Positions 1,457 through 43,985 of a stretch of DNA of 51,093 bases are shown here, piece after piece. The notes under the pieces were generated by a model, which ran no database searches, was not told the DNA's origin, and was given only the letters and a program-made list of their open reading frames with translations. The DNA lies in the IMG/VR virus record IMGVR_UViG_3300045988_122807; one strand, given 5' to 3'. A program made the translations under genes and the position numbers. The first letter of the stretch is position 1; the number at the start of each line of letters is the position of its first letter. The DNA is from a virus.

Positions 1457-2200
1457 GTGGACATCGTATGGAAAAGGCTGGACGAGATTACCCCATACGA
1501 AAATAACCCCAGGGACAACGACCAGGCCGTGGACGCTGTGGCCTCCTCCATCAAGGAGTTTGGCTTCAAGGTCCCAATCGTGATAGATGCCCAGGGGGTC
1601 ATCGTAGCCGGTCACACCAGACACAAGGCTGCCAAAAAGCTGGGCCTGGAGAAGGTCCCTTGCATCGTGGCCGATGACCTGAGTGACGAGCAGATCAGAG
1701 CTTTCCGGCTGGCTGATAATAAGACGGCGGAGCTGGCAGACTGGAACGAGGACCTTCTGGCCCAGGAGCTGGCCGAGATTGAAGACATCGACATGACCCT
1801 ATTCGGTTTCGGGGATGAGGAGAGCGACCTTGCCGACGAGCTGGAGGATAACCCCTACACCATGGCCACGAACGTCCCCCAGTATGAGCCCACCGGGGAG
1901 AAGCCCTCCCTCTCCCAGCTCTATGACGCCGATAAGACCGATGACCTCATAGCCGAGATTGAGGCCTCCGGCCTGAGCAAGGAGGAGAAGGGCTTCCTGC
2001 TGCGGGCCGCCGGCCGGCACACGGTTTTCAACTATGGCCTGATAGCTGAGTATTACGCCCACGCATCCCCGGAGATGCAGGAACTCATGGAGAAGTCGGC
2101 CTTGGTCATCATCGACGTGGACAATGCCATTGCCAATGGCTATGCCACCCTCATGGGTGAGGTCCTGGACGCTATGGGGGAGGCTGGGGACGATGCGTGA
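1457..2200 (+). CDS. ParB-like nuclease (ParB/Srx N-terminal) domain protein
   Basis: GTG start 7 nt after AAGGAGG. The N-terminus LDEITPYENNPRDNDQAVDAVASSIKEFGFKVPIVID..GVIVAGHTRHKAAKKLG...VADDLSDEQIRAFRLADNK is a classic ParB N-terminal domain. Confidence 0.85.
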   Translation: MDIVWKRLDEITPYENNPRDNDQAVDAVASSIKEFGFKVPIVIDAQGVIVAGHTRHKAAKKLGLEKVPCIVADDLSDEQIRAFRLADNKTAELADWNEDLLAQELAEIEDIDMTLFGFGDEESDLADELEDNPYTMATNVPQYEPTGEKPSLSQLYDADKTDDLIAEIEASGLSKEEKGFLLRAAGRHTVFNYGLIAEYYAHASPEMQELMEKSALVIIDVDNAIANGYATLMGEVLDAMGEAGDDA

Positions 2201-3053
2201 TGACTTTGCCGTGCTCATCCTGACCCATGGGAGAGCCGATAACGTGGTCACCATGAAAACCCTTCAGCGGCAGGGGTATTCCGGGAAGTGGTACATGGTC
2301 ATTGATGACGAGGACGATATGGCCGATGACTACCGCCGGAACTTCGGAGAGGAGCACATCGTCACGTTCTGCAAGCAGGAAGCCGTGGACCGAGCGGACA
2401 CCATGGACAATCTGGATGAGCACCGGGCCATCCTGTATGCCCGCAATGAGAGCTTCCGTATCGCGCGGGACCTGGGCCTGAAATACTTCCTCATGTTGGA
2501 TGACGATTACAGCGACTTCCTGTTTCGTTTCCCTGAAGGGAAGAAGATGGCCTCCAAGACCCCCAGGGGAAAGACCCTGGAGAGGATTTTCGAGGCCATG
2601 CTGGGCTTCCTGGACGCTTCCGGGGCCGCAACCGTGGCCTTTGCCCAGGGCGGTGACTTTATCGGAGGTCTGAGGGGCGGGAACTTCAAGAAGCGCCTCC
2701 TCCGTAAGGCCATGAACAGCTTCTTTTGCAGAGTGGACCGCCCCATCCAGTTCCGGGGGACCATGAACGAGGACGTGACCACCTACACCACCTTGGGGAG
2801 CCGCGGGGAGCTGTTCTTCACCTTCGTTGATGTCCATATCATCCAAATCCCCACACAATCCCTGGGCGGCGGCATGACGGCTGCCTACCGGGAGAGCGGG
2901 ACATACCTGAAAACCTTCTATTCAGTCATGTCCATGCCGTCCTGTATCAAGGTCGGGATGATGTACAGCAAGAACAGCCGGATACACCACCGCATCGACT
3001 GGGAGTGCTGCGTCCCCAAGATACTGAACGAGAAATACCGAAAGGAGAGATAG
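2193..3053 (+). CDS. GT-A-fold (GT2-like) nucleotide-sugar glycosyltransferase-like protein
   Basis: The ATG at 2193 overlaps the ParB stop. The beta1 strand AVLILTHGRAD, the YMVIDDEDD segment and the DxD-type YFLMLDDDY are spaced as in GT-A transferases. No exact family could be assigned by eye. Confidence 0.5.
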   Translation: MRDDFAVLILTHGRADNVVTMKTLQRQGYSGKWYMVIDDEDDMADDYRRNFGEEHIVTFCKQEAVDRADTMDNLDEHRAILYARNESFRIARDLGLKYFLMLDDDYSDFLFRFPEGKKMASKTPRGKTLERIFEAMLGFLDASGAATVAFAQGGDFIGGLRGGNFKKRLLRKAMNSFFCRVDRPIQFRGTMNEDVTTYTTLGSRGELFFTFVDVHIIQIPTQSLGGGMTAAYRESGTYLKTFYSVMSMPSCIKVGMMYSKNSRIHHRIDWECCVPKILNEKYRKER

Positions 3054-3057
3054 CTTC

Positions 3058-4017
3058 ATGCAGGGCATAGCTGGCGATAAGATGCTGGCCCATATTGGAA
3101 GGGTGGCCGGAGATCACCGGCCCATTACTGCCGACATCTTCCTGACGAACTACTGCAACAACCGATGTCCCTACTGCACATACAGGCGGTGGGACCTGGA
3201 GGGCGGGGCCTATTCCATGACCCTGGCCGAGTTCAAAACCTATGCCGAGCGGCTGAGGGCCCTCGGAGTGCTGGGCTTTATCCTCACTGGAGGAGGGGAG
3301 CCCACGGTTGCCCCTGACTTTCCCGCCATTGCTGGATGGCTGGAGAGCCAGGGGCTTCATTATGGCGTCAACACCAACTTCAATGAGCTGCACTTCATCA
3401 AACCCGACTATCTGAAGGTCAGCCTGGATGGGTGGGACGAGGAAAGCTACGAATGGCGCCGGGGGGTGAGGCGCTACGATACCGTCCGGGAGAATATCCA
3501 GCGTTATGCCTCCTGGAAGGAGGAGCACAGCCCCGGCACCTCCCTGGGGGTCCAGTGCGTGGTGGAGAGCGTGGGGGACGTTCTGAAGTTCTACCAGGCC
3601 AACCATGGGCTGAAGGTCGATTACATGGTATTCCGTCCCAAGGAAAGCACCGGGGGCAAGGCGTATTCTGGGGAAGCTGGGAAGGTCATCGCCTCCAGTA
3701 TTATCCGGGCCGTGAATGAGCTGGCCGCTCAAGACCCTCGCGTGGTGCTCAACTTCAAGTGGCACCTGCTGGGGACGCAGGAAACCTCTTGCGTTGCTTC
3801 CTGGGCCCAAATCGCCCTGAATGAGCGAGGCGAGGTCATGTACTGCTGCCACAAGCCCTATCAGGTCATCGGCCATGTGCTTGATGAGGATATTCTGGAA
3901 AAGAAGGCCGCCGCCGTAACTGATATGCGGACCTGTGACATACCCTGCCGGATGACCGCTCCCAATGCTTTTGTAGCCCGGACTATGGCCGAGCGTAAAG
4001 ATGTCTGCTTCATCTGA
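3058..4017 (+). CDS. Radical SAM enzyme with a Cys-rich C-terminal (SPASM/twitch-like) extension
   Basis: The CxxxCxxC motif FLTNYCNNRCPYCTY lies near the N-terminus, followed by the GGGEP SAM-binding motif (ILTGGGEPT). C-terminal cysteines: SCVASW, YCCHKPY, TCDIPC. Confidence 0.8.
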   Translation: MQGIAGDKMLAHIGRVAGDHRPITADIFLTNYCNNRCPYCTYRRWDLEGGAYSMTLAEFKTYAERLRALGVLGFILTGGGEPTVAPDFPAIAGWLESQGLHYGVNTNFNELHFIKPDYLKVSLDGWDEESYEWRRGVRRYDTVRENIQRYASWKEEHSPGTSLGVQCVVESVGDVLKFYQANHGLKVDYMVFRPKESTGGKAYSGEAGKVIASSIIRAVNELAAQDPRVVLNFKWHLLGTQETSCVASWAQIALNERGEVMYCCHKPYQVIGHVLDEDILEKKAAAVTDMRTCDIPCRMTAPNAFVARTMAERKDVCFI

Positions 4018-4043
4018 GCGGGCACCTGACCAAGGAACGAGAG

Positions 4044-4547
4044 GTGGTGAGAGTGGCCCATCAGAACAACGAGCAGAACCTTATCCCCTTCAATGAGCGA
4101 ACCGAGGACGAACGGAGGGAACTGGCTTCCAAAGCTGGGAAGGCCTCTGGAGCTGCCCGCCGGAAGAAACGGACCATGAAGGCCACCGCCAAAATGCTGT
4201 TTGACCTCCCTATCACCTCCAAGGAGCTGAAGCAAAAACTGGCTCTGCTGGGCGTTGACACGGATGATGCCACATACCAAACCGCCGTCATGGTGGCTAT
4301 GCTCAACCAGGCCATGAAGGGCAATGTCAAGGCTGCCGCCTTCTGCCGGGAGCTGCTGGGAGAGGACCCGTCCATCCAGCTCCGCCGGGATGAGCTGAAG
4401 CTGTCCCGGGAGAAGTTCCAGCATGAGAAGGCCATGGACGAGCGCACCGTGGCCGCAGACGAGCAGAAGGCGTCCCTGGCTGATGCTATCCAGGCAGCCT
4501 ACCAAATGCGGCTCAAACGTGAGCAGACGGGCGGTGACGATGAATGA
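4044..4547 (+). CDS. terS: Terminase small subunit
   Basis: Lies immediately upstream of terL and overlaps it. The N-terminus NLIPFNERTEDERRELASKAGKASGAARRKKR is typical of Firmicute-phage small terminases. Confidence 0.65.
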   Translation: MVRVAHQNNEQNLIPFNERTEDERRELASKAGKASGAARRKKRTMKATAKMLFDLPITSKELKQKLALLGVDTDDATYQTAVMVAMLNQAMKGNVKAAAFCRELLGEDPSIQLRRDELKLSREKFQHEKAMDERTVAADEQKASLADAIQAAYQMRLKREQTGGDDE

Positions 4548-5986
4548 TAGACCCGGAGGCAATCCTGTACTATGCGGACAACCCTGTGGACTTTGTGGAG
4601 GACATCATCCGGGCAAAGCCTGACCCCAACCAGCGGGACATACTCAACTCCATTGCCAAGTATCCTATGACCTCTGTTCGGTCCGGCCACGGCATCGGCA
4701 AGTCTGCTGTGGAGAGCTGGGCCGTTATCTGGTTTCTGGCAACCAGGCCCTTCCCCAAGATACCATGCACAGCCCCCACTCAGCACCAGCTCTGGGACAT
4801 TCTGTGGGCTGAAATCGCCAAATGGTTGAGGTCCAACCCCGTACTGAGCAACGACCTTATCTGGACCCGCGAAAAGGTCTATATGAGGGGCTACCCGGAA
4901 GAATGGTTTGCGGTAGCCCGGACCGCCAGCAAGCCCGACGCCCTCCAGGGCTTCCATGCTGACCATGTGCTCTATATCATCGACGAGGCCTCCGGCGTCC
5001 GGGATGATATTTTCGAGCCTGTCCTGGGCGCCCTCTCCACCGAGGGGGCCCGCCTGGTTATGTGCGGGAACCCTACTAAAATCACCGGCTTTTTCTATGA
5101 TAGCCACCACAAGAACCGGGCGCAGTACAGCACCCTCCACATTGATGGCCGGAACAGCAGCCGGGTAGATGAGGAGTTCATCCGAACCATCATTGAGATG
5201 TTCGGGGAGGACAGCGACGTTTTTAGGGTCCGCGTGGCCGGGGACTTCCCCAAGGCCCTGCCCGATAGCTTCATAGCTATGGAGTGGGCGGAGAGGGCCA
5301 GCGAGGGTGAACCCCCCGCCATTGAGCGTGTCCTGAGAGTGGACATCGGCATTGACGTGGCCCGGTATGGAGATGACAGCAGCGTACTTTCCCCCGTGCT
5401 GGATAAAGCCGTTCAGGGTGAGCCTCTGGTTTACCACCACAACGACACCATGGAGCTGGCCGGGAGAGCTGTTCAGGCCATCAAGACCTATGCCAGGGCC
5501 CACGAATGGGCCTCTATTTTCGTCAAGGTGGACTGTGACGGCCTGGGTGTGGGGGTATATGACCGCCTGGCAGAGCAGAGGGCTGAAATCGTGGGGGCTG
5601 TCGAGGCTGACCGGGCCGCTCGGTATGAGGGCGAGGACCCGGACAAAATCCCCCCTCCGTTTCATCTGGAGGTCCTGGAGTGCCACTTCGGGGGCGAAGG
5701 TGGGCGGATTACGGATGATGACCCTATCGAATACCAGAACAGCACCGGGCTCATGTGGGGCGCCGTGCGGGAGGCCCTGAGAACCGGCAGCCTTCACCTC
5801 TGGTATAACGACCAGCAGATCAGTCAGCTATCCAACAGGAAGTATTCCGTCAATAGCTCTGGCCGGATTGAGCTGGAGCGCAAGGAGGCCATGAAAAAGC
5901 GGGGGCTTTCCTCCCCCGATATGGCCGACGCCCTGGCCCTGGCCCTCCACGACCCCGTCGTGAGCGACTGGAGCCTTGAATTTTGA
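4544..5986 (+). CDS. terL: Terminase large subunit
   Basis: Walker A-like SGHGIGKS and Walker B LYIIDEASG, with a C-terminal nuclease-like region (DIGIDVARYGDDSSV). Sits upstream of the portal. Confidence 0.9.
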   Translation: MIDPEAILYYADNPVDFVEDIIRAKPDPNQRDILNSIAKYPMTSVRSGHGIGKSAVESWAVIWFLATRPFPKIPCTAPTQHQLWDILWAEIAKWLRSNPVLSNDLIWTREKVYMRGYPEEWFAVARTASKPDALQGFHADHVLYIIDEASGVRDDIFEPVLGALSTEGARLVMCGNPTKITGFFYDSHHKNRAQYSTLHIDGRNSSRVDEEFIRTIIEMFGEDSDVFRVRVAGDFPKALPDSFIAMEWAERASEGEPPAIERVLRVDIGIDVARYGDDSSVLSPVLDKAVQGEPLVYHHNDTMELAGRAVQAIKTYARAHEWASIFVKVDCDGLGVGVYDRLAEQRAEIVGAVEADRAARYEGEDPDKIPPPFHLEVLECHFGGEGGRITDDDPIEYQNSTGLMWGAVREALRTGSLHLWYNDQQISQLSNRKYSVNSSGRIELERKEAMKKRGLSSPDMADALALALHDPVVSDWSLEF

Positions 5987-6196: not shown

Positions 6197-8401
6197 ATGG
6201 CGTTTTGGGATAGATGGAGGAGGACCCAGGGGACCGCCTCCCGTCCGTATCGGGAGGGCGGCTTTATGGTCCCCCGGTGGTCTACTCCCCCGGAGAGAAA
6301 CACCGAGGAATGGGTCCAGGCCTTCAAGACCAACCCCCGGCTGGCCGTGGTGGAGCGTATCGCCTCCGACCTCTCCTCTGCCGAGGGAAAGCTATACCGC
6401 ATTGGGAAGGATGGAGAGGAACAGGAACTTGACGAGCACCCCTTCCTGGAGTTCTGGGACAACCCCAACCCTCTGCACGAAATGAGCAATGCCGCCCTCT
6501 GGCGGCTGCTGGAAATCTATCTCGCCCTCAAAGGCGAGGGCTATTTTATCATCGAGAAGGATATGTTCGGGCGGCCTGTGGAGCTGTGGCCCGTTCCTGT
6601 GCATTGGGTCCAGATGACCCCTTACCTCGACCACCCCTACTACACCGTCCGGGCTACCTCCGGGACCCTCATGCAGGTGTCCGTGGATGATATGTTCGTG
6701 ATGAAGGACCTCAACCCCTATGACCCGTTCAGGCGGGGCCTGGGCCAGTCTGAGGCCCTGGCGGATGAGATTGAGACGGACGAGTATGCCGCCAAATTCC
6801 AGAAGCGGTTCTTTTTCAACGACGCTACCCCGAACCTGGTCATCTCTATGCCAAAGTCTACCCCTGAACAGCGGCAACGGTTCCGGGCTGAATGGCTGGA
6901 GCGGTTCAGAGGCCACTTCAATTCCCACGGCGTTGCCACCGTAAACGGTGAGGTGGTGGTGAATAAAGTCGGGGACACCATGAAGGACATGGACATGGTG
7001 AATGGGCGCATTTTCCTCCGGGACGCCGTGCTGGAGCATTTCGGGGTCCCCCGTGAAATTATGGGCATTACTGAGAGCAGCAACAGGGCCACCTCTGAGG
7101 CCGCTCAGTATATCTATGCCCAGAATGTCCTTATGCCGAGGCTGAAGCGCCGGGAGGAGGCCATCAACAAGCAGCTCCTCCCGATGTTCGGCCCCGACCT
7201 GATATGGCGGTATGAGGACATCGTACCCCGCAACCAGGAGTTCGACAAGGCTGTGGGTCTGGATGGCTGGAACGCTGGTCTGCTTACCAAGGACGAGGCC
7301 CGCGAGAAGCTGGGTATGCCCCCGGCACCTGTGGGTGGAGATGTCTACAAGACCACCTTCTCTGACGTGTTCGTCCATGAGGATGACGACCCCGCCGCCC
7401 TCTCCGTTGCCGCCGCCAACCTCCAGTATGCAGACGGCGCTCCGCCGCTCCAGGAGAGCGGAAGCGAGGACATAGAGATAACACAAGGGGGCGACCCCAT
7501 CCAGGGCTCAGGCGTTGACGTAGGGGGCGATACGGCGGTGGAAATCACCGACGGGAAGAAGCGGCCCACACCAGAGGAGAAAAAGGCCTCCCTGGTCCAG
7601 GCCGCCCAGCGTGCCCTCCTCCAGGCCGAGCGGGAGGAGAGCCGCCGGTTCGAGATTGCAACGGCGAAGTTCTTCCGGGAGCAGTCCAACCGGATCACCG
7701 CCGCCATGGGCGGCACTGAGAAGGCCGAAAGGACCGTGTGGGACATTCTGCTGGATGGTGTCCCCGAGTATGATGTGGACCCGTCCGGGGCCTGGATGAA
7801 GCTCGACGAGGCTGAGAGAGCCCAGCGGGTAGACAACTTCGTGCTGGGGCTCATCGACTGGCCCGGAGAGGCTGCTGTCCTGGCTTCCATCTTCGACCCT
7901 CTCTGGAAGGAGAGCTACGCCAAGGGCGCAGAGGTAGCGTCCAGGGTGTACGGCCTTCAGGCTATTCAGAGGCCGGAGCTGTTGTCTACCGCCAAGCTGA
8001 GGGGCGGCGTCAGGGTGAAGAATATCACGGAAACCACCCAGAAGGAAATCGCCCGTATTGTCTCCTCTGGCCTGGAGCACGGGGACAGCAGGGCCACGAT
8101 TGCCTCCCAAATCCAAGAGGAGATGCAGACCACCAGCGCACGGGCCCGGACCATTGCCTCCCAGGAGTGCAACAGCAGCCTCCTCACCGGGAGCCATGAC
8201 ATGATGAGAAGGGCCGGGGCTGAGTGGAAAATATGGCACGTCACCAATATGGCCGTGGCCCGTGATAGCCACAAGAGGCTGAACGGGAAGCGGTGCCCCA
8301 TTGATGGGAAGTTCGAGAACGGGTGCCGCTATCCATGCGACCCTGATTGTGATGACCCTGCAGAGGTGGTCAACTGCCACTGCTTCCTGACTTACGAATG
8401 A
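6197..8401 (+). CDS. Portal protein (HK97-type) fused to a C-terminal SPP1 gp7 / Mu F-like minor-head domain
   Basis: The N-terminal 400 aa is portal-like (ALWRLLEIYLALKGEGYFII..., DEYAAKFQKRFFFNDATP). The C-terminus ITETTQKEIARIVSSGLEHG...RTIASQECNSS...HKRLNGKRCPIDGKF...VNCHCFLTYE is MuF-like. Confidence 0.8.
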   Translation: MAFWDRWRRTQGTASRPYREGGFMVPRWSTPPERNTEEWVQAFKTNPRLAVVERIASDLSSAEGKLYRIGKDGEEQELDEHPFLEFWDNPNPLHEMSNAALWRLLEIYLALKGEGYFIIEKDMFGRPVELWPVPVHWVQMTPYLDHPYYTVRATSGTLMQVSVDDMFVMKDLNPYDPFRRGLGQSEALADEIETDEYAAKFQKRFFFNDATPNLVISMPKSTPEQRQRFRAEWLERFRGHFNSHGVATVNGEVVVNKVGDTMKDMDMVNGRIFLRDAVLEHFGVPREIMGITESSNRATSEAAQYIYAQNVLMPRLKRREEAINKQLLPMFGPDLIWRYEDIVPRNQEFDKAVGLDGWNAGLLTKDEAREKLGMPPAPVGGDVYKTTFSDVFVHEDDDPAALSVAAANLQYADGAPPLQESGSEDIEITQGGDPIQGSGVDVGGDTAVEITDGKKRPTPEEKKASLVQAAQRALLQAEREESRRFEIATAKFFREQSNRITAAMGGTEKAERTVWDILLDGVPEYDVDPSGAWMKLDEAERAQRVDNFVLGLIDWPGEAAVLASIFDPLWKESYAKGAEVASRVYGLQAIQRPELLSTAKLRGGVRVKNITETTQKEIARIVSSGLEHGDSRATIASQIQEEMQTTSARARTIASQECNSSLLTGSHDMMRRAGAEWKIWHVTNMAVARDSHKRLNGKRCPIDGKFENGCRYPCDPDCDDPAEVVNCHCFLTYE

Positions 8402-9408
8402 TGGAGGGCAGGCCTATGGAGTTCACGATAGACCAGGCAACGGCTGCTGCTGAGGCGGCCGGCATTGACCTGAAGAAGGAGCGGTTTACCGCTGAGGCCC
8501 TGGCCGCCGGTATGACGGCGGAGCTGGAGCATGGGGCTGAGAGCCCCGATACTGACATCACCAATAATGACCCCATACTGACGGCGAAACTTGCGGTGGC
8601 TCACCTCCGCAAATCGCCGTTTTATTATGCCCCGAAGAAGGGGCTGAAAGCGTGGGAGGCTTCGCTCGGGAAGGGGGTGAAAACCAAGAGCATGAAAACC
8701 GAGTACAAGGTCCTTCAATTCAAGGCGGACGAGTACGAGGAAGATACTGGCATTTTCAGCGGCTACGCCGCCGTGTTCGGGAATGTGGACAGCGGCGGCG
8801 ACATCATAGAGCCCGGAGCCTTCACGAAGACAATCGCCGAAGGCTGGGAGCGGGTCAAAATCCTGGCCCTGCATAACGACTGCTGGCTTCCCATTGGCCG
8901 CCCTCTGGAACTGAGGGAGGACAGCAACGGCCTTTACATCAAGGCCAAGGTCAGCGACACCTCGATGGGGCGCGACATCAAGGTGTTGCTGAAGGATGGC
9001 GTCCTCAATGAGCTGTCCATCGGGTATGACCCTGTCGTATTCGACTACGACAAGGACAGCGGGGTCCGTCATCTCCGCGAGGTGAAGCTGTGGGAGGTGT
9101 CCGTTGTCACCTGGGCTATGAACCCGGAGGCAGTCATCACCGACTACAAGCAGGCTGCTGAAGCCGCCGAGAGAGCCAACGCCATGGCCGCTGAAGCTGC
9201 AGCCGACGTAAAAGCCGGCCGCAAAATCAGTGCCGCCAGGATGAAGGCCCTGAAGGAGGCGAGCGCCAGTATGAAGGCCGCCACCAAAGCCCTTGACAGC
9301 ATCATCCGTGAGGCTGGAGAGGAGAGCACACCCAAGGGGGCCCCGGCCCCTGAAGCCGGTAAGGGAGCGCACCCTGCCGGAGCTACCACCATCGAAATCT
9401 TACTTTGA
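8398..9408 (+). CDS. Prohead serine protease (HK97 / S78 family) with an N-terminal extra domain
   Basis: FSGYAAVFGNVDSGGDIIEPGAFTKTI...LALHND..PIGRP...GLYIKAKV...LSIGY. The start could instead be the ATG at 8416. Confidence 0.85.
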   Translation: MMEGRPMEFTIDQATAAAEAAGIDLKKERFTAEALAAGMTAELEHGAESPDTDITNNDPILTAKLAVAHLRKSPFYYAPKKGLKAWEASLGKGVKTKSMKTEYKVLQFKADEYEEDTGIFSGYAAVFGNVDSGGDIIEPGAFTKTIAEGWERVKILALHNDCWLPIGRPLELREDSNGLYIKAKVSDTSMGRDIKVLLKDGVLNELSIGYDPVVFDYDKDSGVRHLREVKLWEVSVVTWAMNPEAVITDYKQAAEAAERANAMAAEAAADVKAGRKISAARMKALKEASASMKAATKALDSIIREAGEESTPKGAPAPEAGKGAHPAGATTIEILL

Positions 9409-9424
9409 CAGGAGGAACACCAGA

Positions 9425-11014
9425 ATGAGCAAGTACATTCCCAAGACCAAGAACTCCCCCGCCCCTGCTGGCCGCAAGTCTGTGAAGATGGAGGCCGACG
9501 AGCTGACCGAGAAAATCAAGGCTTGCGTCAAGGAGGCCCTGGAGGAGCAGTCCGAGGCCAAGGCTGAGGGCGAGGGCGAGGAGGGCGACCCCACTGTGGA
9601 GGCTGCCCCCACTGACATCTCCGCCCTGATTGAGCAGGCCATGGACGTAGTGGCCCAGAAGCGCAAGGCCCGCAAGGACGCTGGCGAGGAGCTGGGCGAC
9701 GTGAGCGCCGACGAGGTCCTGGAGGCCGTGGGCGAAATTATGGAGGCCCAGGAGGAAGCCAAGGCCGATGACGGCGTGGAGGATGAGGAAGCCAAGGAGG
9801 ATGAAGGCATGGAGGAGAACGAGGCGAAGGGCCGCAAGGCTGCCGCCCGGCCCACCAGCACCAAGTCTGCCCCTGGCCGTAAGGCTGCCCCTGCTCCCGT
9901 GCAGCGGAAGTACAGCGGCATCTACATGAGCCGGGGCTCCGGGGCTCCTTCCTCCAAGAAGTCTGTGCCCCCCGCTATCCAGCTCGCCCGCGCCATCAAG
10001 TGCCTGGACGTGTTTGGCCGCCACGACCCCGATATGGCCTCCTTCTATGCCCGGAAGAAGTACGACGATGCGGATATGGCCCGCGAGTTCAAGGCCCTGT
10101 CCGCCACCAACCCCTCCGGCGGCGGCTACCTCATCCCGGAGGTTTACCTGGATGACATCGTGGAGCTGCTGTACGCCAAGACCGTCATCTTTGAGCTGGG
10201 CGCTCAGAAGGTCCCCATGGCAAACGGCAACCTGAACATCCCCAAGATGACCTCCGGGGCCCGTGCTACCTGGGGCGGTGAGGGCCGCAAGATTGCCAAG
10301 AGCCAGCCCGCCTTCGGCAACATTAAGCTGTCCGCCAAGCGCCTGGAGGCTATCGTCCCCCAGACCCGCGAGCTGCTGATGTCTACCAACTTCTCTGCCG
10401 ACCAGATGTTTGCCAACGACCTGACCCGCCGGATGGAGCTGGGCCTGGACTTCGGCGCTATGTTCGGCAAGGGCGGCGAGTTCCAGCCCCTCGGCGTGTT
10501 CACCGACAAGGAGGTTGAGCACGTAGACGCCAAGACCCTGGGCAACACCGACCTGTCCTCTGCTGAGGGTGCCATCACCGCCGACTTCCCCGTGTATATC
10601 CGCTCCAAGGTCCTGGCCAAGAACGTGGATGACAACAAGCTCGGCTGGGCCTTCAACTCCGTGCTGGAAGGCTACCTCATGAATATGAAAACCACCACCG
10701 GCGCCTACATCTACCGGGATGAGATGAACAGCGGCAAGCTGCTGGGCTTCCCCTACCGGGTGTCCAATCAGATCACTACCGACGGCACCGGCCTCACTGA
10801 GCTGGCCTTCGGTAACTGGTCCGACCTGCTTGTGGGTGAGCAGCTGGGCCTGGAGACCTACACCACCCTGGACGGCTCCTGGACCGACGAGGACGGCGTT
10901 CAGCACAATGCCTTCGAGGAGAACCTGGCGGCCACCCGTGCCCTGATGTACGTTGACATCGCCGCCCGGCACAAGGAGAGCTTCATCCACGTCAAGAACA
11001 TCAAGGCTTTTTGA
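9425..11014 (+). CDS. Major capsid protein, HK97 fold, with a long acidic N-terminal delta/scaffold domain
   Basis: ATG at 9425 follows GGAGGAACACCAGA. GGYLIPEVYLDDIVELLYAKTVIFELGA...NIPKMTSGARATWGGEG...IKLSAKRLEAIVPQTRELL matches Phage_capsid. Confidence 0.9.
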   Translation: MSKYIPKTKNSPAPAGRKSVKMEADELTEKIKACVKEALEEQSEAKAEGEGEEGDPTVEAAPTDISALIEQAMDVVAQKRKARKDAGEELGDVSADEVLEAVGEIMEAQEEAKADDGVEDEEAKEDEGMEENEAKGRKAAARPTSTKSAPGRKAAPAPVQRKYSGIYMSRGSGAPSSKKSVPPAIQLARAIKCLDVFGRHDPDMASFYARKKYDDADMAREFKALSATNPSGGGYLIPEVYLDDIVELLYAKTVIFELGAQKVPMANGNLNIPKMTSGARATWGGEGRKIAKSQPAFGNIKLSAKRLEAIVPQTRELLMSTNFSADQMFANDLTRRMELGLDFGAMFGKGGEFQPLGVFTDKEVEHVDAKTLGNTDLSSAEGAITADFPVYIRSKVLAKNVDDNKLGWAFNSVLEGYLMNMKTTTGAYIYRDEMNSGKLLGFPYRVSNQITTDGTGLTELAFGNWSDLLVGEQLGLETYTTLDGSWTDEDGVQHNAFEENLAATRALMYVDIAARHKESFIHVKNIKAF

Positions 11015-11041
11015 GCCTGAGAAACAGGAGGTAAAAGAACC

Positions 11042-11455
11042 ATGAAGCGTGAACTCATTCAGAACGTGAAGGTCACTCCCTATACCAGCGAGGACGCTAT
11101 TGACCGTGACGGCTTCCTGTCTGCTGTCCTGGGGGTCCTGGTGGGCACTCCCACTGGGTCCCCCACCGGCCTGGCTGTTAAGCTGACCGTGACCGAGTGC
11201 GATACCGAGAGCGGGAGCTATACCCCCGCCGCCGATAAGCTCATCCCCGTGGACAAGGCCCTGGACGCTGACGGCTCCATTTCCCTGGATACTGATGCCG
11301 CCGGCGGCGCCCTGGTGAACTTCGACCTTGACCTGGTGGGCTGCAAGCAGTTCATCAAGATTAAGGTCGAGGTCGTTTGCACCGGCGGCTCCTCTGCTTC
11401 CTGCACCGCCACCGCCGCCCTGGTGCTGGGGGATAAGGCCTACACCCCCGCGTAA
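11042..11455 (+). CDS. Hypothetical head-associated protein (possible decoration protein)
   Basis: Strong RBS AGGAGGTAAAAG. Lies right after the capsid gene. 137 aa, no motif recognised. Confidence 0.55.
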   Translation: MKRELIQNVKVTPYTSEDAIDRDGFLSAVLGVLVGTPTGSPTGLAVKLTVTECDTESGSYTPAADKLIPVDKALDADGSISLDTDAAGGALVNFDLDLVGCKQFIKIKVEVVCTGGSSASCTATAALVLGDKAYTPA

Positions 11456-23419: not shown

Positions 23420-25705
23420 ATGTCCCTATTCACCGATGGCTGCTACCAGTGCGCGCCTGCTGAGGCTCTTATTGCCAAGGTGCTTGCTGGTCGCTGTACC
23501 ATGCACTATACGAGGGTCGCCGTGGGAAATGGGAGTATCCCAGAAGGGAGCACCCCGGCCACGATGACTGAGCCCGCCGGATATGTGATGGACGCCAAAC
23601 TCAGTGGGGTAACGAACCCGGTCGATGGAGAGTGTCAGGTCACCGCGCAGATCACCAGCGACGATGTGACGGCTGACTTCTCCGCGACCGGCGTTCTTTT
23701 GTATGCTGAGGACCCGGACCTGGGAGAGGTGCCCTATACATATCTCGTTTTGGAGGCCGCCCCTGAGCCTATCAAGGGCAAGACCTCTACCGTCGGTAAG
23801 ATTGCCATTTTCGAGCTTGTGGCCGCTGTGGGAGCTGTGGACAATGTGACCGCAGATATTGACCTCGAAACTTTGGTGACCGTCGAGAAGGTGGCCGAGA
23901 TGATTGCCGCCCATAACGTGGACGAGGAGGCCCACCCGGACATCAGGCAGATTGCCCAGGACGCCCTTGACCAGGTGGAGGCCCTGACCCATACCATCAG
24001 CACTATCCCCACCCAGAACGGCAGCCTGACCTACACCGGGTCCCCGCAGTCTCCGAGCTGGAACGGCTACGACCCGGCCACCTTGACCCTGGGCGGAACC
24101 ACGGAGGCCACCGACGCAGGGACCTACACGGCCACGTTTACGCCGAAGGACGATTACCAGTGGGCTGATGGCACGAAAGACCCGAAGTCGGTCCAGTGGA
24201 GCATCGGCAGGGCGAACATTGCCAGTGTGCCTACCCAGACGGGCAGCCTGACCTATAACGGGAGCACCCAAAGCCCTACCTGGTCCGGCTATGATACCTC
24301 CAAGATGACCCTGGGGGGAACCACCAGCGGCACCAATGCTGGAAGCTATGCCGCCACCTTTACCCCGAAGGCAAATTATCAGTGGACTGATGGGACCACG
24401 GCGGCCAAGGAAGCGACCTGGACCATTGGAAGGGCTACCGTCTCCACTCTCCCAAGCCAGTCTGGGTCCCTGACCTATACCGGCTCGGCGCAGTCTCCCA
24501 CCTGGGCCAATTATGATACCACGAAGCTGACTATCGGCGGGGCTACCAGCGGTACCAATGCCGGGACCTATACCGCAACATTCACCCCCACCTCCAACTA
24601 TCAGTGGGATGGTGGCGGCATCGGTCCTCAGAGCGTTAACTGGAGTATTGGGAAAGCCGCCGGCAGTTTGACCCTGAACAGGTCCAGTCTGACCCTGAAT
24701 AATGCCACCAGGACCGGGACAATCACTGTTACCCGCCCCGGGAATGGTGTTGTTACTGCATCCTCCAATAAGACCAGTATCGCCACCGTGAGCGTGAGCG
24801 GCACCACCATCACTGTGACTGCCGTTGCCTATGGCTCCGCCACGATCACCGTCAACGTGGCTGAGGGGACGAACCACACAGCCCCCTCCAGTAAGACGTG
24901 CAGCGTCACTGTGAACCTTTTCAACGATACCCTGAACTCCAACACCTGGGCCGCGATTAAGGCCGCCAGCGACGCCGGAGACGCCGCCAACGTGTGGAGC
25001 GTGGGAGATACTAAGAGTATCCGCCTTAATGGTAGGGTGGGCAACTTTACCTTCTCCAACCAGTCTATTGATGCCTTTATCGTGGGCTTTAACCACAACA
25101 GCAGTAAAGAGGGCGGAAAGAGGACCCACTTCGCTATCGGGAAAATCAGCGGGAAACTGGTGGCCCTGTGCGATAACCAGTACAACAACGAGCAGACCTC
25201 CAGCGGCTATTTCAACATGAATACCAGCCGGACCAATTCTGGAGGGTGGAACAACAGCAACATGAGGCGGAATATCCTGGGCAATACCGGGACCCCCTCC
25301 AGCCCCCCGGCCAACACTCTGCTGGCGGCCCTGCCCTCTGACCTCCGCGCCGTGATGAAGTCTGTGACCAAGTACACGGATAACACCGGCAATGCCAGCA
25401 ATGTGGCCGGGAATGTCACAGCGACCACCGATTATCTCTGGCTCTTTGCTGAGTTCGAGGTCTTTGGTACACGATATATTGCCAATGAGTATGAGAAGAA
25501 CAGCCAGGCCCAGTATGCCTACTTCTCCGCTGGCAACTCTCGTGTAGCGTACAGACATTCGTCTACCGGCACGGCCGTCTGGTGGTGGCTTCGGTCCGCC
25601 TATTACAACGGCAACAATCACTTCTGCTATGTGTACACCGACGGCAGCTGCAGCGTCACCAATGCTTCCTGGTCTGCCGGCGTCGTGGCCGGCTTTGCTG
25701 CCTAA
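23420..25705 (+). CDS. Tail fibre: collar-type N-terminus, three 74-aa tandem repeats, Big_2-like Ig domain, C-type-lectin-like tip carrying the DGR variable repeat
   Basis: The N-terminus is like tail-collar fibre proteins. The C-terminus ...TAVWWWLRSAYYNGNNHFCYVYTDGSCSVTNASWSAGVVAGFAA is the classic DGR-target ending (WWLRS...GFR/A). Confidence 0.85.
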   Translation: MSLFTDGCYQCAPAEALIAKVLAGRCTMHYTRVAVGNGSIPEGSTPATMTEPAGYVMDAKLSGVTNPVDGECQVTAQITSDDVTADFSATGVLLYAEDPDLGEVPYTYLVLEAAPEPIKGKTSTVGKIAIFELVAAVGAVDNVTADIDLETLVTVEKVAEMIAAHNVDEEAHPDIRQIAQDALDQVEALTHTISTIPTQNGSLTYTGSPQSPSWNGYDPATLTLGGTTEATDAGTYTATFTPKDDYQWADGTKDPKSVQWSIGRANIASVPTQTGSLTYNGSTQSPTWSGYDTSKMTLGGTTSGTNAGSYAATFTPKANYQWTDGTTAAKEATWTIGRATVSTLPSQSGSLTYTGSAQSPTWANYDTTKLTIGGATSGTNAGTYTATFTPTSNYQWDGGGIGPQSVNWSIGKAAGSLTLNRSSLTLNNATRTGTITVTRPGNGVVTASSNKTSIATVSVSGTTITVTAVAYGSATITVNVAEGTNHTAPSSKTCSVTVNLFNDTLNSNTWAAIKAASDAGDAANVWSVGDTKSIRLNGRVGNFTFSNQSIDAFIVGFNHNSSKEGGKRTHFAIGKISGKLVALCDNQYNNEQTSSGYFNMNTSRTNSGGWNNSNMRRNILGNTGTPSSPPANTLLAALPSDLRAVMKSVTKYTDNTGNASNVAGNVTATTDYLWLFAEFEVFGTRYIANEYEKNSQAQYAYFSAGNSRVAYRHSSTGTAVWWWLRSAYYNGNNHFCYVYTDGSCSVTNASWSAGVVAGFAA
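24011..24676 (+). repeat. Three tandem 222-bp (74-aa) repeats inside the tail-fibre gene
   Basis: Units start at 24011, 24233 and 24455. Example unit: TQ.GSLTY.GS.QSP.W.GYD...(L/M)TLGGTT...AG.Y.ATFTPK..YQW.DGT. Confidence 0.85.
25573..25696 (+). repeat. DGR variable repeat (VR)
   Basis: 124 nt aligned to 26638-26761. There are 13 mismatches, all at positions where the TR has A. Confidence 0.9.
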
Positions 25706-25733
25706 TCCTCCGCAGAGCTATCCAGGCCCCATC

Positions 25734-25753
25734 CCGCCCCCGCAAGGGGGCGG
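25734..25753 (+). promoter_or_regulatory. GC-rich hairpin (8-bp stem, GCAA tetraloop) 37 nt downstream of VR; candidate DGR target-recognition stem-loop
   Basis: CCGCCCCC-GCAA-GGGGGCGG. A comparable element is known downstream of the VR in the Bordetella phage BPP-1 DGR. Confidence 0.55.
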
Positions 25754-25799
25754 TCCCCCGGTAGAAGAAGGCGGCTCCAGGGAGCGCCGAAAAAATAAT

Positions 25800-25828
25800 G
25801 TCGGCGCGAAGCGCCGACGCGATTTTTT
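25800..25828 (+). terminator. Rho-independent terminator after the tail-fibre gene
   Basis: GTCGGCGC-GAA-GCGCCGAC, then GCGA and TTTTTT. An upstream GCGCCGA (25784-25790) could pair with the left arm instead. Confidence 0.65.
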
Positions 25829-25936
25829 GAAAATGCCTCCCTTGAAAAGTGCTATCACTTGCCTGTCTTTAGACTGCATACATGGAGAAAAAATAGCCAT
25901 AAAATAGCTCTATGCCAATCAGTCTGGGGGTATTCT

Positions 25937-26119
25937 ATGGCAACCAACAAAAGAGTGTTCACCCTCCGCCTCTCCGATGAAGTGTTTGAGAAAATCGGAA
26001 TACTGGCTACCAATGAGCACCGTTCCGTGACGAACTATATCGAGTTCGTGCTACTGAAGCACCTGGAGGACGTGGAGAGGGAACACGGAGAAATTAAGAC
26101 CGGCGGAACTGAGGTGTAG
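25937..26119 (+). CDS. Ribbon-helix-helix (Arc/CopG-like) DNA-binding protein inside the DGR cassette
   Basis: MATNKRVFTLRLSDEVFEKIGILATNEHRSVTNYIEFVLLKHLE shows the beta-strand-helix-helix pattern of RHH proteins. The ATG follows a GGGGG RBS. Confidence 0.6.
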   Translation: MATNKRVFTLRLSDEVFEKIGILATNEHRSVTNYIEFVLLKHLEDVEREHGEIKTGGTEV

Positions 26120-26121
26120 CT

Positions 26122-26583
26122 ATGTCGGTTCTAAAATCCAAAAGAACTACCAGCAAGGCCGAGTTCGTGAACACGGCCCATCAGATTTTTGTCGAGACCC
26201 TGGGCTTTCTCACCCGGCTGTCTGCCCGGTACTCCCGGCTCCTGGCCGAACCTACCGCAAAGCTGGCCGGAGAGGTCATCGACCATGCGGAGAAGGCCAA
26301 CAGCATCTTCCCGTCTGACCTTCAGCGGGTGGAGCTGAGAAAAGCCCATCTCCTGGAGGCCAGGGCCTCCCTCATGGCCCTGGACGTGAGGCTCACCCAT
26401 TGCTATACGCTGATGAGCCAGAACCCCCAGGGCTGTTTCACGGATGGAAAAGGGAAAAGCCTTCCTCCGTCTGAAGCGATGGAGAAGCTGGACCGCATGG
26501 CCCAAAGCCTTGGAGAGAAGATAGACCAGGAGAACGAGCTTCTGAAGGGGCAAATCAAGGGCTTGGCGAAGAAGAAAGAATAG
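26122..26583 (+). CDS. avd: Accessory variability determinant (Avd-like four-helix-bundle protein)
   Basis: 153 aa, helical and basic, placed immediately 5' of the TR as in canonical DGRs. Confidence 0.6.
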   Translation: MSVLKSKRTTSKAEFVNTAHQIFVETLGFLTRLSARYSRLLAEPTAKLAGEVIDHAEKANSIFPSDLQRVELRKAHLLEARASLMALDVRLTHCYTLMSQNPQGCFTDGKGKSLPPSEAMEKLDRMAQSLGEKIDQENELLKGQIKGLAKKKE

Positions 26584-26637
26584 CTCAATATTGGGTGTAT
26601 GTCTGATTATTCCAGGCGCGGTGTTTTCGGCCCTTCG

Positions 26638-26761
26638 GGCCGTCTGGTGGTGGCTTCGGTCCGCCAATTACAACAACAACAATAACTTCTGCAATGTGAA
26701 CACCGACGGCAACTACAACAACAACAATGCTTCCTGGTCTGCCGGCGTCGTGGCCGGATTT
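26638..26761 (+). repeat. DGR template repeat (TR)
   Basis: A non-coding copy of the VR, rich in AAC/AAT codons (AATTACAACAACAACAATAAC...AACTACAACAACAACAAT). The track ORF 26591-26788 is an artefact of this repeat. Confidence 0.9.
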
Positions 26762-26983
26762 TGCGATATGCGGGGTCAAATGGAGTAGCAAGAGAGCGAA
26801 AGACGACCCACGCAAAAGGAGACATACTTCCCTGGGTGAAAATCCCTAAAACTGCCCTCTGACGGCTCCGCACGGACGCTTCTTGCATGGCAGGGGATTG
26901 CGCTGAACCTGTTTCATGTGCTGGGCCAAAGTAGTTTAGAGGCGCACCTACAACTTAACTATGCGGAGGCGCGAATACTTATT
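26638..26983 (+). ncRNA. DGR RNA (TR plus structured spacer up to the RT start)
   Basis: 220-nt non-coding spacer with a long-range helix: AATCCC/CTGCC at 26841-26856 pairs with GGCAG/GGGATT at 26889-26899. The true ends are unknown. Confidence 0.5.
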
Positions 26984-43984: not shown

Positions 43985-43985
43985 T

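Follow-up and report, generated by a model that had tools for sequence, protein, structure and literature searches.

A ParB-like, TAGT glycosyltransferase and radical SAM gene set upstream of viral terminase genes: a candidate packaging-linked DNA glycosylation module

Described phage DNA hypermodification systems

The described systems closest to the locus considered here are the ParB-dependent phage clusters that contain 5mYOX dioxygenases of the TET/JBP type (Burke et al., 2021, PMC8256090; O'Toole et al., 2026, PMC13229309; NEB preprint 10.1101/2023.12.21.572611). The genes most often seen next to 5mYOX encode glycosyltransferases, ParBs and terminases, and in a related system ParB activates the DNA-modifying enzyme on double-stranded DNA. 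Phage GT-A enzymes act on 5hmC and have JGT as their closest structural match, and R...DDD...ED(Y/F) has been given as the GT-A active-site motif (NEB preprint 10.1101/2023.12.21.572611).

The Pfam family PF20691, termed TET-associated glycosyltransferase (TAGT), includes the kinetoplastid base-J glucosyltransferase, the second glucosyltransferase of T2/T6 (beta-glucosyl-HMC alpha-glucosyltransferase) and phage 5hmC transferases. The T2/T6 enzyme glycosylates a DNA-bound acceptor; in the T2/T6 and base-J members the sugar goes onto a hydroxyl already present on the DNA, either that of 5hmU/5hmC or that of a first glucose. A radical SAM enzyme is also known from a phage hypermodification cluster: gp53 of phage M6 is a spore-photoproduct-lyase (SPL)-like isomerase of thymidine hypermodification, which tailors a group already on the DNA (Lee et al., 2021, PMC8989533).

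The window, i.e. the whole 51,093-nucleotide stretch of viral DNA that was analysed (IMG/VR record IMGVR_UViG_3300045988_122807), resembles the 5mYOX clusters in several properties. Its ParB appears to have an N-terminal nucleotide-binding domain and a C-terminal domain with no obvious DNA-binding domain, which would agree with the published description; a GT-A (TAGT-like) DNA transferase is common to both; terminase genes are frequent neighbours; and action is presumably post-replicative. The window differs in that TET_JBP was not found in it or in the sampled ParB-TAGT neighbourhoods of its clade. It has a radical SAM enzyme instead, and the hosts are strict anaerobes.

The gene set and its setting

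Three translationally coupled genes on the + strand encode a ParB-like protein (1457–2200), a TAGT glycosyltransferase (2193–3053) and a radical SAM enzyme (3058–4017). All three reading frames are present where the preliminary description of this DNA had placed them, between a promoter-like site and the small terminase gene, and its domain assignments (ParB/Srx, GT-A and radical SAM) are correct by Pfam and PHROG profile searches. The motifs it had pointed to, YMVIDDEDD, LMLDDDY, CNNRCPYC and GGGEP, are likewise all there.

The ParB gene starts with GTG at 1457 and has AAGGAGG ahead of the start codon. The TAGT start (ATG, 2193) overlaps the ParB stop codon (ATGcgTGA, 2193–2200), and the radical SAM start (ATG, 3058) is 4 nt past the TAGT stop, with AAGGAGAG upstream. 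A small terminase-like gene (terS; 4044–4547, +; phrog_2412, E = 6e-30; weak DUF5681 match) begins with GTG 26 nt past the radical SAM stop and is directly upstream of terL, the large terminase gene (4544–5986, +; phrog_2 terminase large subunit, E = 5e-45). The TAGT gene is thus upstream of terS/terL and one gene away from them, and the module opens the late/structural operon.

Upstream of the enzyme module and outside it is a gene for a putative late-gene transcriptional regulator (762–1283, +; phrog_36 'transcriptional regulator', E = 1e-12), which is co-linear with the trio in close relatives. The 173-nt gap after this gene holds a sigma-70-like promoter candidate with an extended −10 (1334–1362, +; TAGACT-17-TG-TATAAT, 10 of 12 consensus matches) and a hairpin. 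A late promoter had been claimed before the trio; the site exists, but it is weak evidence on its own (the consensus scan found 3 such sites in 4.1 kb versus 1.6 expected). The hairpin, seen by direct reading of the sequence, is strong and GC-rich (1387–1425, +) and lies in the leader between the promoter candidate and the ParB start. It has the form CAGCGGCAGAAAGGCC-TTCG-GGCTTTCTGCCGCTG followed by a T-rich stretch, and might be a regulated terminator or an RNA structure.

The glycosyltransferase and the ParB-like protein

The glycosyltransferase matches PF20691 over its entire length (profile positions 1–205 of 205) with E = 6.4e-52 and 176.9 bits against a cut-off of 27.5, and phrog_842 with E = 2.6e-66. 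The catalytic pattern is present, although its last position is V and not Y/F; R (in THGR), DDD (in LMLDDDY) and NED(V) are kept across 11 diverse TAGT members. The protein is basic (pI 8.5), as is the family (pI 8.6). The preliminary description had allowed that profile searches could put the enzyme in a well-characterised non-DNA pathway. They did not: by sequence it is a bona fide member of the TAGT family, a predicted DNA glycosyltransferase, and this strengthens the DNA-modification reading. The window protein is therefore in the same Pfam family as the T2/T6 and base-J enzymes and shares their active-site pattern, but unlike in those systems no enzyme that makes a hydroxylated acceptor was found encoded in the window.

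The ParB-like protein consists of an N-terminal ParB/Srx (CTPase-fold) domain, an acidic linker and a C-terminal domain, and has a pI of 4.2. ParB_N (PF02195, E = 3e-9, residues 10–88) is the sole Pfam domain and no HTH was detected in the protein; phrog_620 matches over the full length (E = 3e-66). The N-domain most resembles the ParB domains that occur as fusions with phage DNA methyltransferases (phrog_498, ParB-MTase, E = 2e-45; PADLOC MTase_II, PDLC03229, E = 1e-27, residues 9–132). These fusions are encoded upstream of phage terminases, a position shared with the window trio. In the window, however, ParB is a separate polypeptide and its partner is a glycosyltransferase, with a radical SAM enzyme in addition, and not a methyltransferase. 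By analogy, this implies a common logic, whereby a ParB domain may bring a DNA-modifying activity to phage DNA.

The radical SAM enzyme

The third protein matches Radical_SAM (PF04055) with E = 2e-13 and 51.2 bits against a cut-off of 29.5, and belongs to an uncharacterised family. It remains under the thresholds of Pfam SPASM (13.4 bits versus 21.5) and of the NCBIfam twitch model (39.6 versus 170). In an alignment of 50 family sequences the cluster cysteines C33-x3-C37-x2-C40 and GGGEP are invariant, as are five C-terminal cysteines (C245, C263, C264, C293 and C297), which confirms the extra cysteines noted earlier. The signature C245-x12-G258-x4-C263-C264...C293-x3-C297 is of the C-x12-G-x4-C twitch/SPASM type, and the seven-cysteine SPASM set is absent from the alignment. 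The C-terminal domain thus looks twitch-like or partial-SPASM, with one predicted auxiliary Fe-S cluster.

An AF2 model (pLDDT 88.8) has a partial TIM-barrel core. Its best Foldseek matches in the PDB are DesII (E = 4e-13, TM 0.64), SuiB, BlsE (E = 2e-10), viperin (E = 1e-9) and anSME; BtrN and SpeY rank lower. The radical SAM core is thereby upheld, but the nearest folds include sugar- and nucleotide-modifying enzymes and not DNA-acting ones. It should be pointed out that the peptide maturase SuiB nearly equals DesII in score, and a TM of about 0.6 is the general level of the SPASM/twitch fold. Profile-sequence searches link the enzyme to its relatives through the common radical SAM core only. 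Identity to the DesII/BlsE/BtrN/SpeY/viperin type is only 12–18%, and NCBIfam holds no characterised equivalog, so the substrate is not transferable by homology.

An SPL-like enzyme of the SplB or M6 gp53 kind was also considered and rejected, as SPL is not found among the top 50 Foldseek matches in the PDB; M6 gp53 and the window enzyme belong to different families, SPL-like and twitch/SPASM-like, respectively. The window enzyme has no match to the PHROG 'DNA repair photolyase', unlike the radical SAM enzyme of one other locus (L125), where an SPL-like enzyme follows ParB-TAGT.

Viperins are without conserved auxiliary-cluster cysteines. Identification as a viperin or pVip was rejected: PADLOC pVip gives only 27 and 24 bits (E = 6e-7), far below family level, the 25 listed NCBIfam matches (of 35) include no viperin model, and the auxiliary cysteines are conserved. 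The broader proposal that the protein is a viperin-like or nucleotide-directed counter-defence enzyme, which shares a slot with ParB-TAGT and has no mechanistic coupling to glycosylation, appears unlikely for the same reasons. It draws on the weak pVip matches, on viperin structures among the Foldseek matches, on 'viperins' annotated in glycosyltransferase neighbourhoods (NEB preprint 10.1101/2023.12.21.572611), and on a Tad2-like gene that Pfam searches place just upstream in the window. In addition, some orthologues reside in a slot between MuF-like and scaffold genes that, in the P0102 lineage, is occupied by a Tad2-like anti-Thoeris gene. Yet the trio is tightly coupled translationally and co-inherited before unrelated terminases, and one lineage sandwiches the radical SAM gene between the other two (ParB-rSAM-TAGT).

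Distribution and gene order

ParB-TAGT pairs are found directly upstream of the terminase genes of very many tailed phages and of one haloarchaeal virus, usually in the order ParB-TAGT-terS-terL-portal, and they occur in isolates as well (phi jlb1, HHTV-2, and Salmonella/E. coli, Nocardia and Porphyromonas phages). ParB adjoins TAGT in 78 of 80 sampled TAGT loci, but only 6 of the 80 have the radical SAM gene. When the search starts from the radical SAM gene, the trio is kept in about 60 of 76 IMG/VR loci, ahead of at least four unrelated terminase sets. As these are independent viral contigs with radical SAM identities of 42–100%, the arrangement is not due to chance. Co-occurrence with ParB and terminases, which had been suggested as a check, is seen in most of the loci that have the radical SAM gene, and these are a minority of the sampled TAGT loci. 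The combination of ParB, TAGT and radical SAM was not found described in the literature searched, which fits the earlier claim of an undescribed module, but the ParB-glycosyltransferase pair beside the terminase is a known and very common core. The radical SAM enzyme is a lineage-specific add-on to this widespread core.

Other genes take the third slot elsewhere: an NAD epimerase/dehydratase (8 loci), PseB with a DegT aminotransferase, a CofD-like protein with an NTP-transferase, or additional TAGT paralogues. Polymerase-encoding phages have the order ParB-rSAM-TAGT, within the replication module between DNA polymerase and sliding clamp, and relatives in this lineage that do not have the radical SAM gene have a TAGT 57–61% identical. 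The TAGTs adjoining a radical SAM gene are mostly of one clade, and could thus have a distinct acceptor that depends on the radical SAM enzyme.

Radical SAM orthologues with 50–60% identity are also seen with a GT2 family transferase and without ParB. In five head-module loci the gene is between MuF-like and scaffold genes, and the GT2 gene comes right after the major capsid gene. A distant homologue in MW202801 also follows a capsid gene, in a glycan-type cluster with GT, NodB and methyltransferase genes. Capsid glycosylation is known in mycobacteriophages. These arrangements, together with the position of the module at the start of the late/structural operon and the SuiB-type peptide-modifying enzymes among the best fold matches, raise the question of whether glycosyltransferase and radical SAM enzyme glycosylate or cross-link virion proteins (capsid, portal or terminase) and not DNA. 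This is improbable. The characterised TAGT-family members named in the literature act on DNA-bound acceptors, the TAGT is basic, as expected of a DNA enzyme, and the ParB N-domain is of the type fused to phage DNA methyltransferases. Moreover, the ParB-rSAM-TAGT set of the polymerase-encoding phages is far from head genes.

The radical SAM proteins fall into 597 protein clusters, and one lineage is indexed in 241 blocks of the assembly collection. All identified hosts of true orthologues are strict gut anaerobes (Muriventricola, Blautia, Clostridia, Lachnospiraceae and Phascolarctobacterium); a prophage of Muriventricola aceti has a gene 99% identical to that of the window.

Origin of the acceptor

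The absence of a visible TET/JBP dioxygenase, hydroxymethylase, kinase or DpdA, as first described, agrees with the present searches of the window. At the Pfam level, neither TET/JBP (PF12851) nor a ThyS-type hydroxymethylase was found in the window ORFs scanned, which are all plausible ones but the tape-measure gene. PF12851 was likewise absent within 10 kb either side in the P0102 lineage. The 78 neighbour-gene clusters of the sampled ParB-TAGT loci include neither TET_JBP nor thymidylate synthase, and no acceptor-making candidate was seen in the whole phi jlb1 genome. Pfam TET_JBP does miss some divergent phage dioxygenases, as 5–17% of contigs from phage-specific profiles are without the annotation.

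The window does encode a C5-cytosine DNA methyltransferase (47237–49060, +; 607 aa; PF00145, E = 9e-28), and the radical SAM enzyme had been suggested to act on the 5mC it lays down. This is unsupported: the methylase is found with the trio in the window's own lineage only, and no DNA_methylase is present within 10 kb either side in the very abundant P0102 lineage. Since the methylase is not a conserved partner, the substrate of an acceptor-generating enzyme would have to be thymine.

Such an enzyme is at the centre of the main alternative, possible if doubtful, in which the radical SAM protein replaces the Fe(II)/2-oxoglutarate 5-methylpyrimidine dioxygenase (TET/JBP, 5mYOX) of aerobic ParB/GT-A systems. 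By taking a hydrogen from the C5-methyl of thymine (or 5mC) in DNA it would create a radical, to be oxidised by the auxiliary cluster; addition of water, or directly of a nucleophile, would then yield 5hmU/5hmC for the TAGT to glycosylate, with ParB helping the radical SAM enzyme on double-stranded DNA. The set of ParB, oxidising enzyme, GT-A and terminase mirrors the ParB-dependent 5mYOX neighbourhoods, no other acceptor-making enzyme was found in the window, and the conserved auxiliary-cluster domain could accept electrons. The hosts are also in keeping with the proposal: an O2-dependent dioxygenase could not function in strict anaerobes. Radical SAM genes in head modules without ParB/TAGT, two of them without a visible glycosyltransferase, fit an enzyme that modifies DNA alone, the radical SAM-linked TAGTs are largely one clade, and M6 gp53 is a precedent for radical SAM action on a DNA base adduct.

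However, 72–74 of the 80 sampled ParB-TAGT modules have neither a radical SAM gene nor a detectable dioxygenase; complete genomes are among them, as are phages of aerobes and of anaerobes alike. Their acceptor is evidently found otherwise, which weakens the need for a radical SAM enzyme in acceptor creation. The polymerase-phage relatives keep a closely similar TAGT without it, the fold is nearer to that of sugar/nucleotide enzymes than to the DNA-acting SPL/M6 gp53 type, and an acidic family (median pI 5.9) is unusual for a double-stranded DNA enzyme. A methyl hydroxylase of this kind is not known among radical SAM enzymes. In its specific form, as an anaerobic, ParB-assisted TET/JBP counterpart that activates the thymine C5-methyl, or another canonical-base position, in phage double-stranded DNA, the proposal is somewhat more doubtful still. 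If true, this would be the first case in which radical-SAM chemistry leads to a hydroxymethyl or glycosylated pyrimidine in DNA, and it would explain J-like bases made without oxygen in phages of strict gut anaerobes.

Proposed function

The explanation tentatively preferred here is that the three genes make up a two-layered DNA glycosylation module linked to packaging, in which the radical SAM enzyme most likely tailors the sugar. In the core layer, ParB would direct or activate the TAGT on double-stranded phage DNA late, just before packaging. The DNA glycosylation core is supported by the strong PF20691 membership, the retained catalytic motif, the conservation of the ParB-TAGT pair before terminase genes and the use of DNA-bound acceptors by characterised members; the role of ParB is proposed from the parallel with phage thymine dioxygenases that depend on ParB and with the ParB-methyltransferase fusions. 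The conservation of the trio in about 60 of 76 loci before unrelated terminases ties the radical SAM enzyme to this core.

In the add-on layer, the 5'-deoxyadenosyl radical would abstract hydrogen from a sugar carbon, and the enzyme would then oxidise, dehydrate, deoxygenate or decarboxylate the sugar, while the auxiliary cluster would take up electrons. DesII, BlsE, BtrN/SpeY and viperin perform such radical chemistry on nucleotide- or base-linked sugars. The enzyme might act on the NDP-sugar donor ahead of transfer, or on the sugar once it is bound to DNA. As the window encodes no other sugar-nucleotide enzyme, the substrate would either come from the host as an NDP-sugar or be the sugar already on the DNA. 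Virion DNA may as a result bear an unusual glycan and escape restriction, including by enzymes that recognise ordinary glucosylated DNA.

Sugar tailoring is favoured because most ParB-TAGT modules do without a radical SAM enzyme or any oxidase and because sugar enzymes occupy the third slot in other loci. The top fold matches include enzymes of nucleotide- or base-linked sugars, with SPL missing from the top 50, and the contrast between the acidic radical SAM family and the basic TAGT points the same way, as do the orthologues found with GT2 and no ParB and the distant homologue in a glycan cluster. Against it, the fold similarity is of a general level and SuiB scores nearly as well as DesII. 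A purely sugar-directed role is also awkward for two head-module loci on partial contigs (L054 and L055), where the radical SAM gene is present and no glycosyltransferase is seen in the available sequence.

Significance

Glycosylated and hypermodified bases are a main means by which phages escape restriction and CRISPR, and the enzymes concerned are a source for epigenetic sequencing chemistry. Known post-replicative routes start from an O2-dependent TET/JBP dioxygenase or from pre-replicative hydroxymethylases. In the trio module neither was found, and it has a radical SAM enzyme of a family without a characterised member. The survey also sharpens a broader question, that of the glycosylation target of thousands of ParB-TAGT pairs without any dioxygenase.

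The trio is widespread among the phages and prophages of strictly anaerobic Firmicutes from the human and animal gut. Whether the radical SAM enzyme tailors the sugar or generates the acceptor, the virion DNA of abundant gut phages with the trio probably carries an undescribed modification, which would have consequences for sequencing bias, host-range prediction and phage engineering.

Organization of the module

The window (about 51 kb) is a temperate myovirus-type phage genome, with an integrase, a holin/amidase pair, baseplate and sheath-initiator genes and a portal-MuF fusion. Three translationally coupled genes stand ahead of its terminase genes. The first encodes a ParB-like protein (1457–2200; GTG start, with AAGGAGG upstream), the second a TAGT glycosyltransferase (2193–3053), whose ATG overlaps the ParB stop codon as ATGcgTGA, and the third a radical SAM enzyme (rSAM; 3058–4017), whose ATG is 4 nt past the TAGT stop. 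A terS-like gene at 4044, terL at 4544 and then the portal gene follow. The preliminary description had placed this trio directly before terS, and gene starts, overlaps and spacing all agree with it in every particular.

A gap of 173 nt separates the trio from an upstream phrog_36 regulator (762–1283). It contains a sigma-70-like site (1334–1362) and, between this promoter-like site and the ParB start, a strong hairpin (1387–1425) with a perfect GC-rich 16-bp stem, a TTCG loop and a partly T-rich tract after it. The hairpin may be a regulated terminator that controls the late operon. The gene for a Tad2-like (anti-Thoeris) protein (61–408; PF11195, E = 8e-22) stands two genes ahead of the late regulator. 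A Tad2-like gene is also found in the head module of P0102, an abundant trio-bearing lineage (contig L208, 15574–16089), in the slot that holds rSAM in other phages.

The window also has a complete diversity-generating retroelement (23420–28153). Its variable repeat (25573–25696) is at the C-terminus of a 761-aa tail-fibre gene, and 12 of 12 mismatches with the template repeat (26638–26761) are at template adenines. An Avd-sized ORF (26122–26583) lies between the two repeats, and the reverse transcriptase (26918–28153; RVT_1, E = 5e-13) is downstream of them.

The association of ParB, glycosyltransferase (GT) and terminase, as well as TAGT itself, are already known from work on 5-methylpyrimidine dioxygenases of the TET/JBP type (5mYOX; 10.1101/2023.12.21.572611), and there is one radical SAM precedent in DNA hypermodification, M6 gp53 (Lee et al., 2021; PMC8989533). 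However, M6 gp53 belongs to a different radical SAM family from the window rSAM, and 5mYOX systems are defined by their dioxygenase, whereas the window module has no dioxygenase. The module is thus a variant outside the 5mYOX systems, not a categorically new one. No description of a ParB-TAGT-rSAM module was found in the searchable literature.

The ParB-TAGT pair

The ParB-like protein has a ParB_N domain (PF02195) at residues 10–88, and a phrog_620 match spans its full length. In phages, ParB domains also occur fused to DNA methyltransferases, and these are the nearest to its N-domain (phrog_498, E = 2e-45; PADLOC MTase_II, E = 1e-27). With a pI of 4.2 the ParB-like protein is highly acidic, and no HTH was detected in it. 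The second gene, first described only as GT-A-like, can now be placed more sharply: its product is a full-length member of Pfam TAGT (PF20691, 177 bits) and has the R...DDD...ED catalytic pattern. This family, reportedly defined by Iyer et al. in 2013, comprises 5254 protein clusters at E ≤ 1e-5. Among its members is the T2/T6 enzyme by which glucosyl-5hmC receives a second glucose. Phage GT-A enzymes that glycosylate 5hmC are TAGTs, and their nearest structural relative is the base-J glucosyltransferase (10.1101/2023.12.21.572611).

A diverse TAGT alignment was used to sample 80 IMG/VR loci: ParB adjoins TAGT in 78 of them, and rSAM is present in six only. The usual gene order is ParB-TAGT-terS-terL-portal. 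Cultured phages with the pair include L. gasseri phi jlb1, haloarchaeal HHTV-2, Salmonella/E. coli siphophages, Nocardia NTR1 and a Porphyromonas phage. A third gene after TAGT often encodes a sugar enzyme: an NAD epimerase/dehydratase in eight loci, and elsewhere PseB with a DegT aminotransferase, a CofD-like protein with an NTP-transferase, or further TAGT paralogues.

Several TAGT paralogues per contig are seen in L151 (at least five in a row, 6249–11218) and in L152, where a CofD-like/HAD protein and an NTP-transferase are also encoded. These arrays suggest multi-sugar glycan assembly. In some loci an ORF lies between ParB and TAGT (cluster c236); a homing endonuclease was considered and rejected, as the ORF is an N-terminal TAGT fragment of a split or frameshifted gene. 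Contig L125 shows that ParB-TAGT has been paired with a radical SAM enzyme a second time and independently: the gene directly after the pair encodes a different, SPL-like enzyme (3287–4129; PHROG ‘DNA repair photolyase’, E = 5e-8).

The ParB-TAGT pair would be a DNA glycosylation unit that acts late, near packaging. Within it, ParB might be the activator or loader, a role it has with ParB-dependent thymine dioxygenases on dsDNA and one that the ParB-methylase fusions also suggest.

Genomic contexts of rSAM

The rSAM family has 597 protein clusters. ParB-TAGT-rSAM is kept in about 60 of 76 IMG/VR rSAM loci (42–100% identity), and since it is found ahead of at least four unrelated terminase/head modules, the trio moves as a unit. 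The order in the P0102 lineage is ParB-TAGT-TAGT-rSAM-terminase. Phages that encode their own DNA polymerase have ParB-rSAM-TAGT, located between the polymerase and the sliding clamp and always preceded by a protein of 390–400 aa (L059:6432–7616, 394 aa; also L053, L060 and L063). The 394-aa protein has no Pfam, PHROG or PDB-sequence matches. This companion is absent from the rSAM-less relatives L130 and L136, and it may be a further component of the polymerase-phage variant. TAGTs of rSAM-less relatives of the polymerase-phage backbone are 57–61% identical; otherwise, the primary TAGTs beside rSAM form one clade. In four loci (L035, L046, L073 and L078) the TAGT beside an intact rSAM is split into an N-terminal part of 118–173 aa and a C-terminal part of 121–165 aa, a split that frameshifts or misassembly could explain, as could a decaying transferase.

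A third context has neither ParB nor TAGT. In seven loci rSAM (50–60% identical) lies between MuF-like and scaffold genes, with a GT2 gene after the capsid gene in five and no visible GT in the other two, which are partial contigs. A search for fuller genomes of this variant gave no new contigs. In MW202801 a distant homologue (26% identity) comes after the capsid gene, within a GT/PhyH/methyltransferase/NodB/GT cluster. A lesser alternative is that virion proteins, not DNA, are glycosylated or cross-linked.

The radical SAM enzyme

CNNRCPYC and GGGEP are invariant in rSAM, as are five C-terminal cysteines (C-x12-G-x4-CC...C-x3-C). Judged from sequence, this arrangement resembles a twitch or partial-SPASM signature with one predicted auxiliary cluster. 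There is no NCBIfam equivalog. Assignment by homology failed, as NCBIfam, a PDB sequence search (single sequence and 50-sequence profile), PHROGs and a BFVD fold search gave generic radical SAM core similarity only; by sequence, solved structures likewise show core-level similarity only. The AF2 model is confident (pLDDT 88.8). Among its best 50 fold matches the nearest are DesII, SuiB, BlsE, viperin and anSME, with BtrN and SpeY ranking below them; spore photoproduct lyase is absent from these 50.

The favoured reading, which we hold tentatively, is that rSAM tailors the sugar. It would catalyse radical oxidation, dehydration, deoxygenation or decarboxylation of an NDP-sugar donor or of the DNA-bound sugar. 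This is preferred because most ParB-TAGT modules need no rSAM, the third slot typically holds sugar enzymes, several of the nearest folds belong to enzymes whose substrates are sugars linked to a nucleotide or base, rSAM orthologues are also found with GTs of an unrelated family, and rSAM is acidic and TAGT basic. An independent viperin-like counter-defence enzyme is a lesser possibility, to which weak pVip matches point; the ‘viperins’ that the preprint on 5mYOX systems (10.1101/2023.12.21.572611) mentions near GTs are probably accounted for by such matches.

Search for acceptor-making genes, and other candidate modification genes

A Pfam scan of concatenated window ORFs, covering every plausible ORF except the tape-measure gene, gave no hit to TET_JBP, a thymidylate-synthase-type hydroxymethylase, a kinase or DpdA, which upholds the initial impression that no TET/JBP enzyme or hydroxymethylase is visible. 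TET_JBP and thymidylate synthase also gave no matches among 78 neighbour-gene cluster representatives from 84 TAGT loci, where 25 of 26 families per batch were among the matches listed. No candidate oxidase is encoded in the complete phi jlb1 genome, whose only unannotated gap (1.4 kb) contains two tRNA genes. A dioxygenase hidden beside rSAM-less ParB-TAGT pairs is rejected by this neighbour-gene scan and the phi jlb1 genome. The finding agrees with the report that about 65% of GT-containing contigs have no 5mYOX or ThyS neighbour (10.1101/2023.12.21.572611).

The main rival to sugar tailoring, somewhat less probable than it, is that rSAM is an oxygen-free replacement for TET/JBP that makes the acceptor on thymine. 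The gene set parallels 5mYOX clusters, no acceptor-making enzyme was found, the hosts are anaerobic, the predicted auxiliary cluster is a possible electron sink, and rSAM also occurs without visible GTs; however, many ParB-TAGT modules are oxidase-free, and the fold relationships of rSAM argue against this role.

The window has three further candidate modification genes. The C5-cytosine methyltransferase (47237–49060) has 607 aa, about twice the usual size, and its Pfam match is in two stretches, the best at residues 14–193, leaving much of the remaining protein unassigned. An XF1762-family gene (43752–44432; NCBIfam NF045478, E = 3.5e-66), a second candidate for DNA modification, has a near-threshold match to Pfam Mom (26.9 versus 27.1 bits). 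Since the ORF before it (43304–43984) overlaps it, its true start is probably internal. The third gene encodes a DUF5131 (phage Gp37/Gp68) protein (45440–46255) that weakly matches radical SAM at its N-terminus and strongly matches PADLOC candidate systems (PDC-M41B, E = 4e-39). This gene and that of the C5-methylase, about 1 kb further downstream, stay together in the close relatives L006, L009 and L149.

It had been proposed that rSAM activates 5mC laid down by the C5-methylase, followed by glycosyl transfer. Co-occurrence rejects this route as a general mechanism: the methylase accompanies the trio in the window's own lineage only, and in the P0102 lineage neither DNA_methylase nor TET_JBP is found within 10 kb on either side.

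Hosts

In bacterial data with one genome per species, true rSAM orthologues are found in strict gut anaerobes only (Blautia, Clostridia, Lachnospiraceae and Phascolarctobacterium). The rSAM gene is 99% identical in Muriventricola aceti H5_61 (NZ_JAOQKF010000001, a 398-kb contig; locus L174, 105508–118464), which points to a prophage of the window phage or of a near relative. M. aceti H5_61 is the likely host, and this cultured strict anaerobe provides a cultivable host for experiments.
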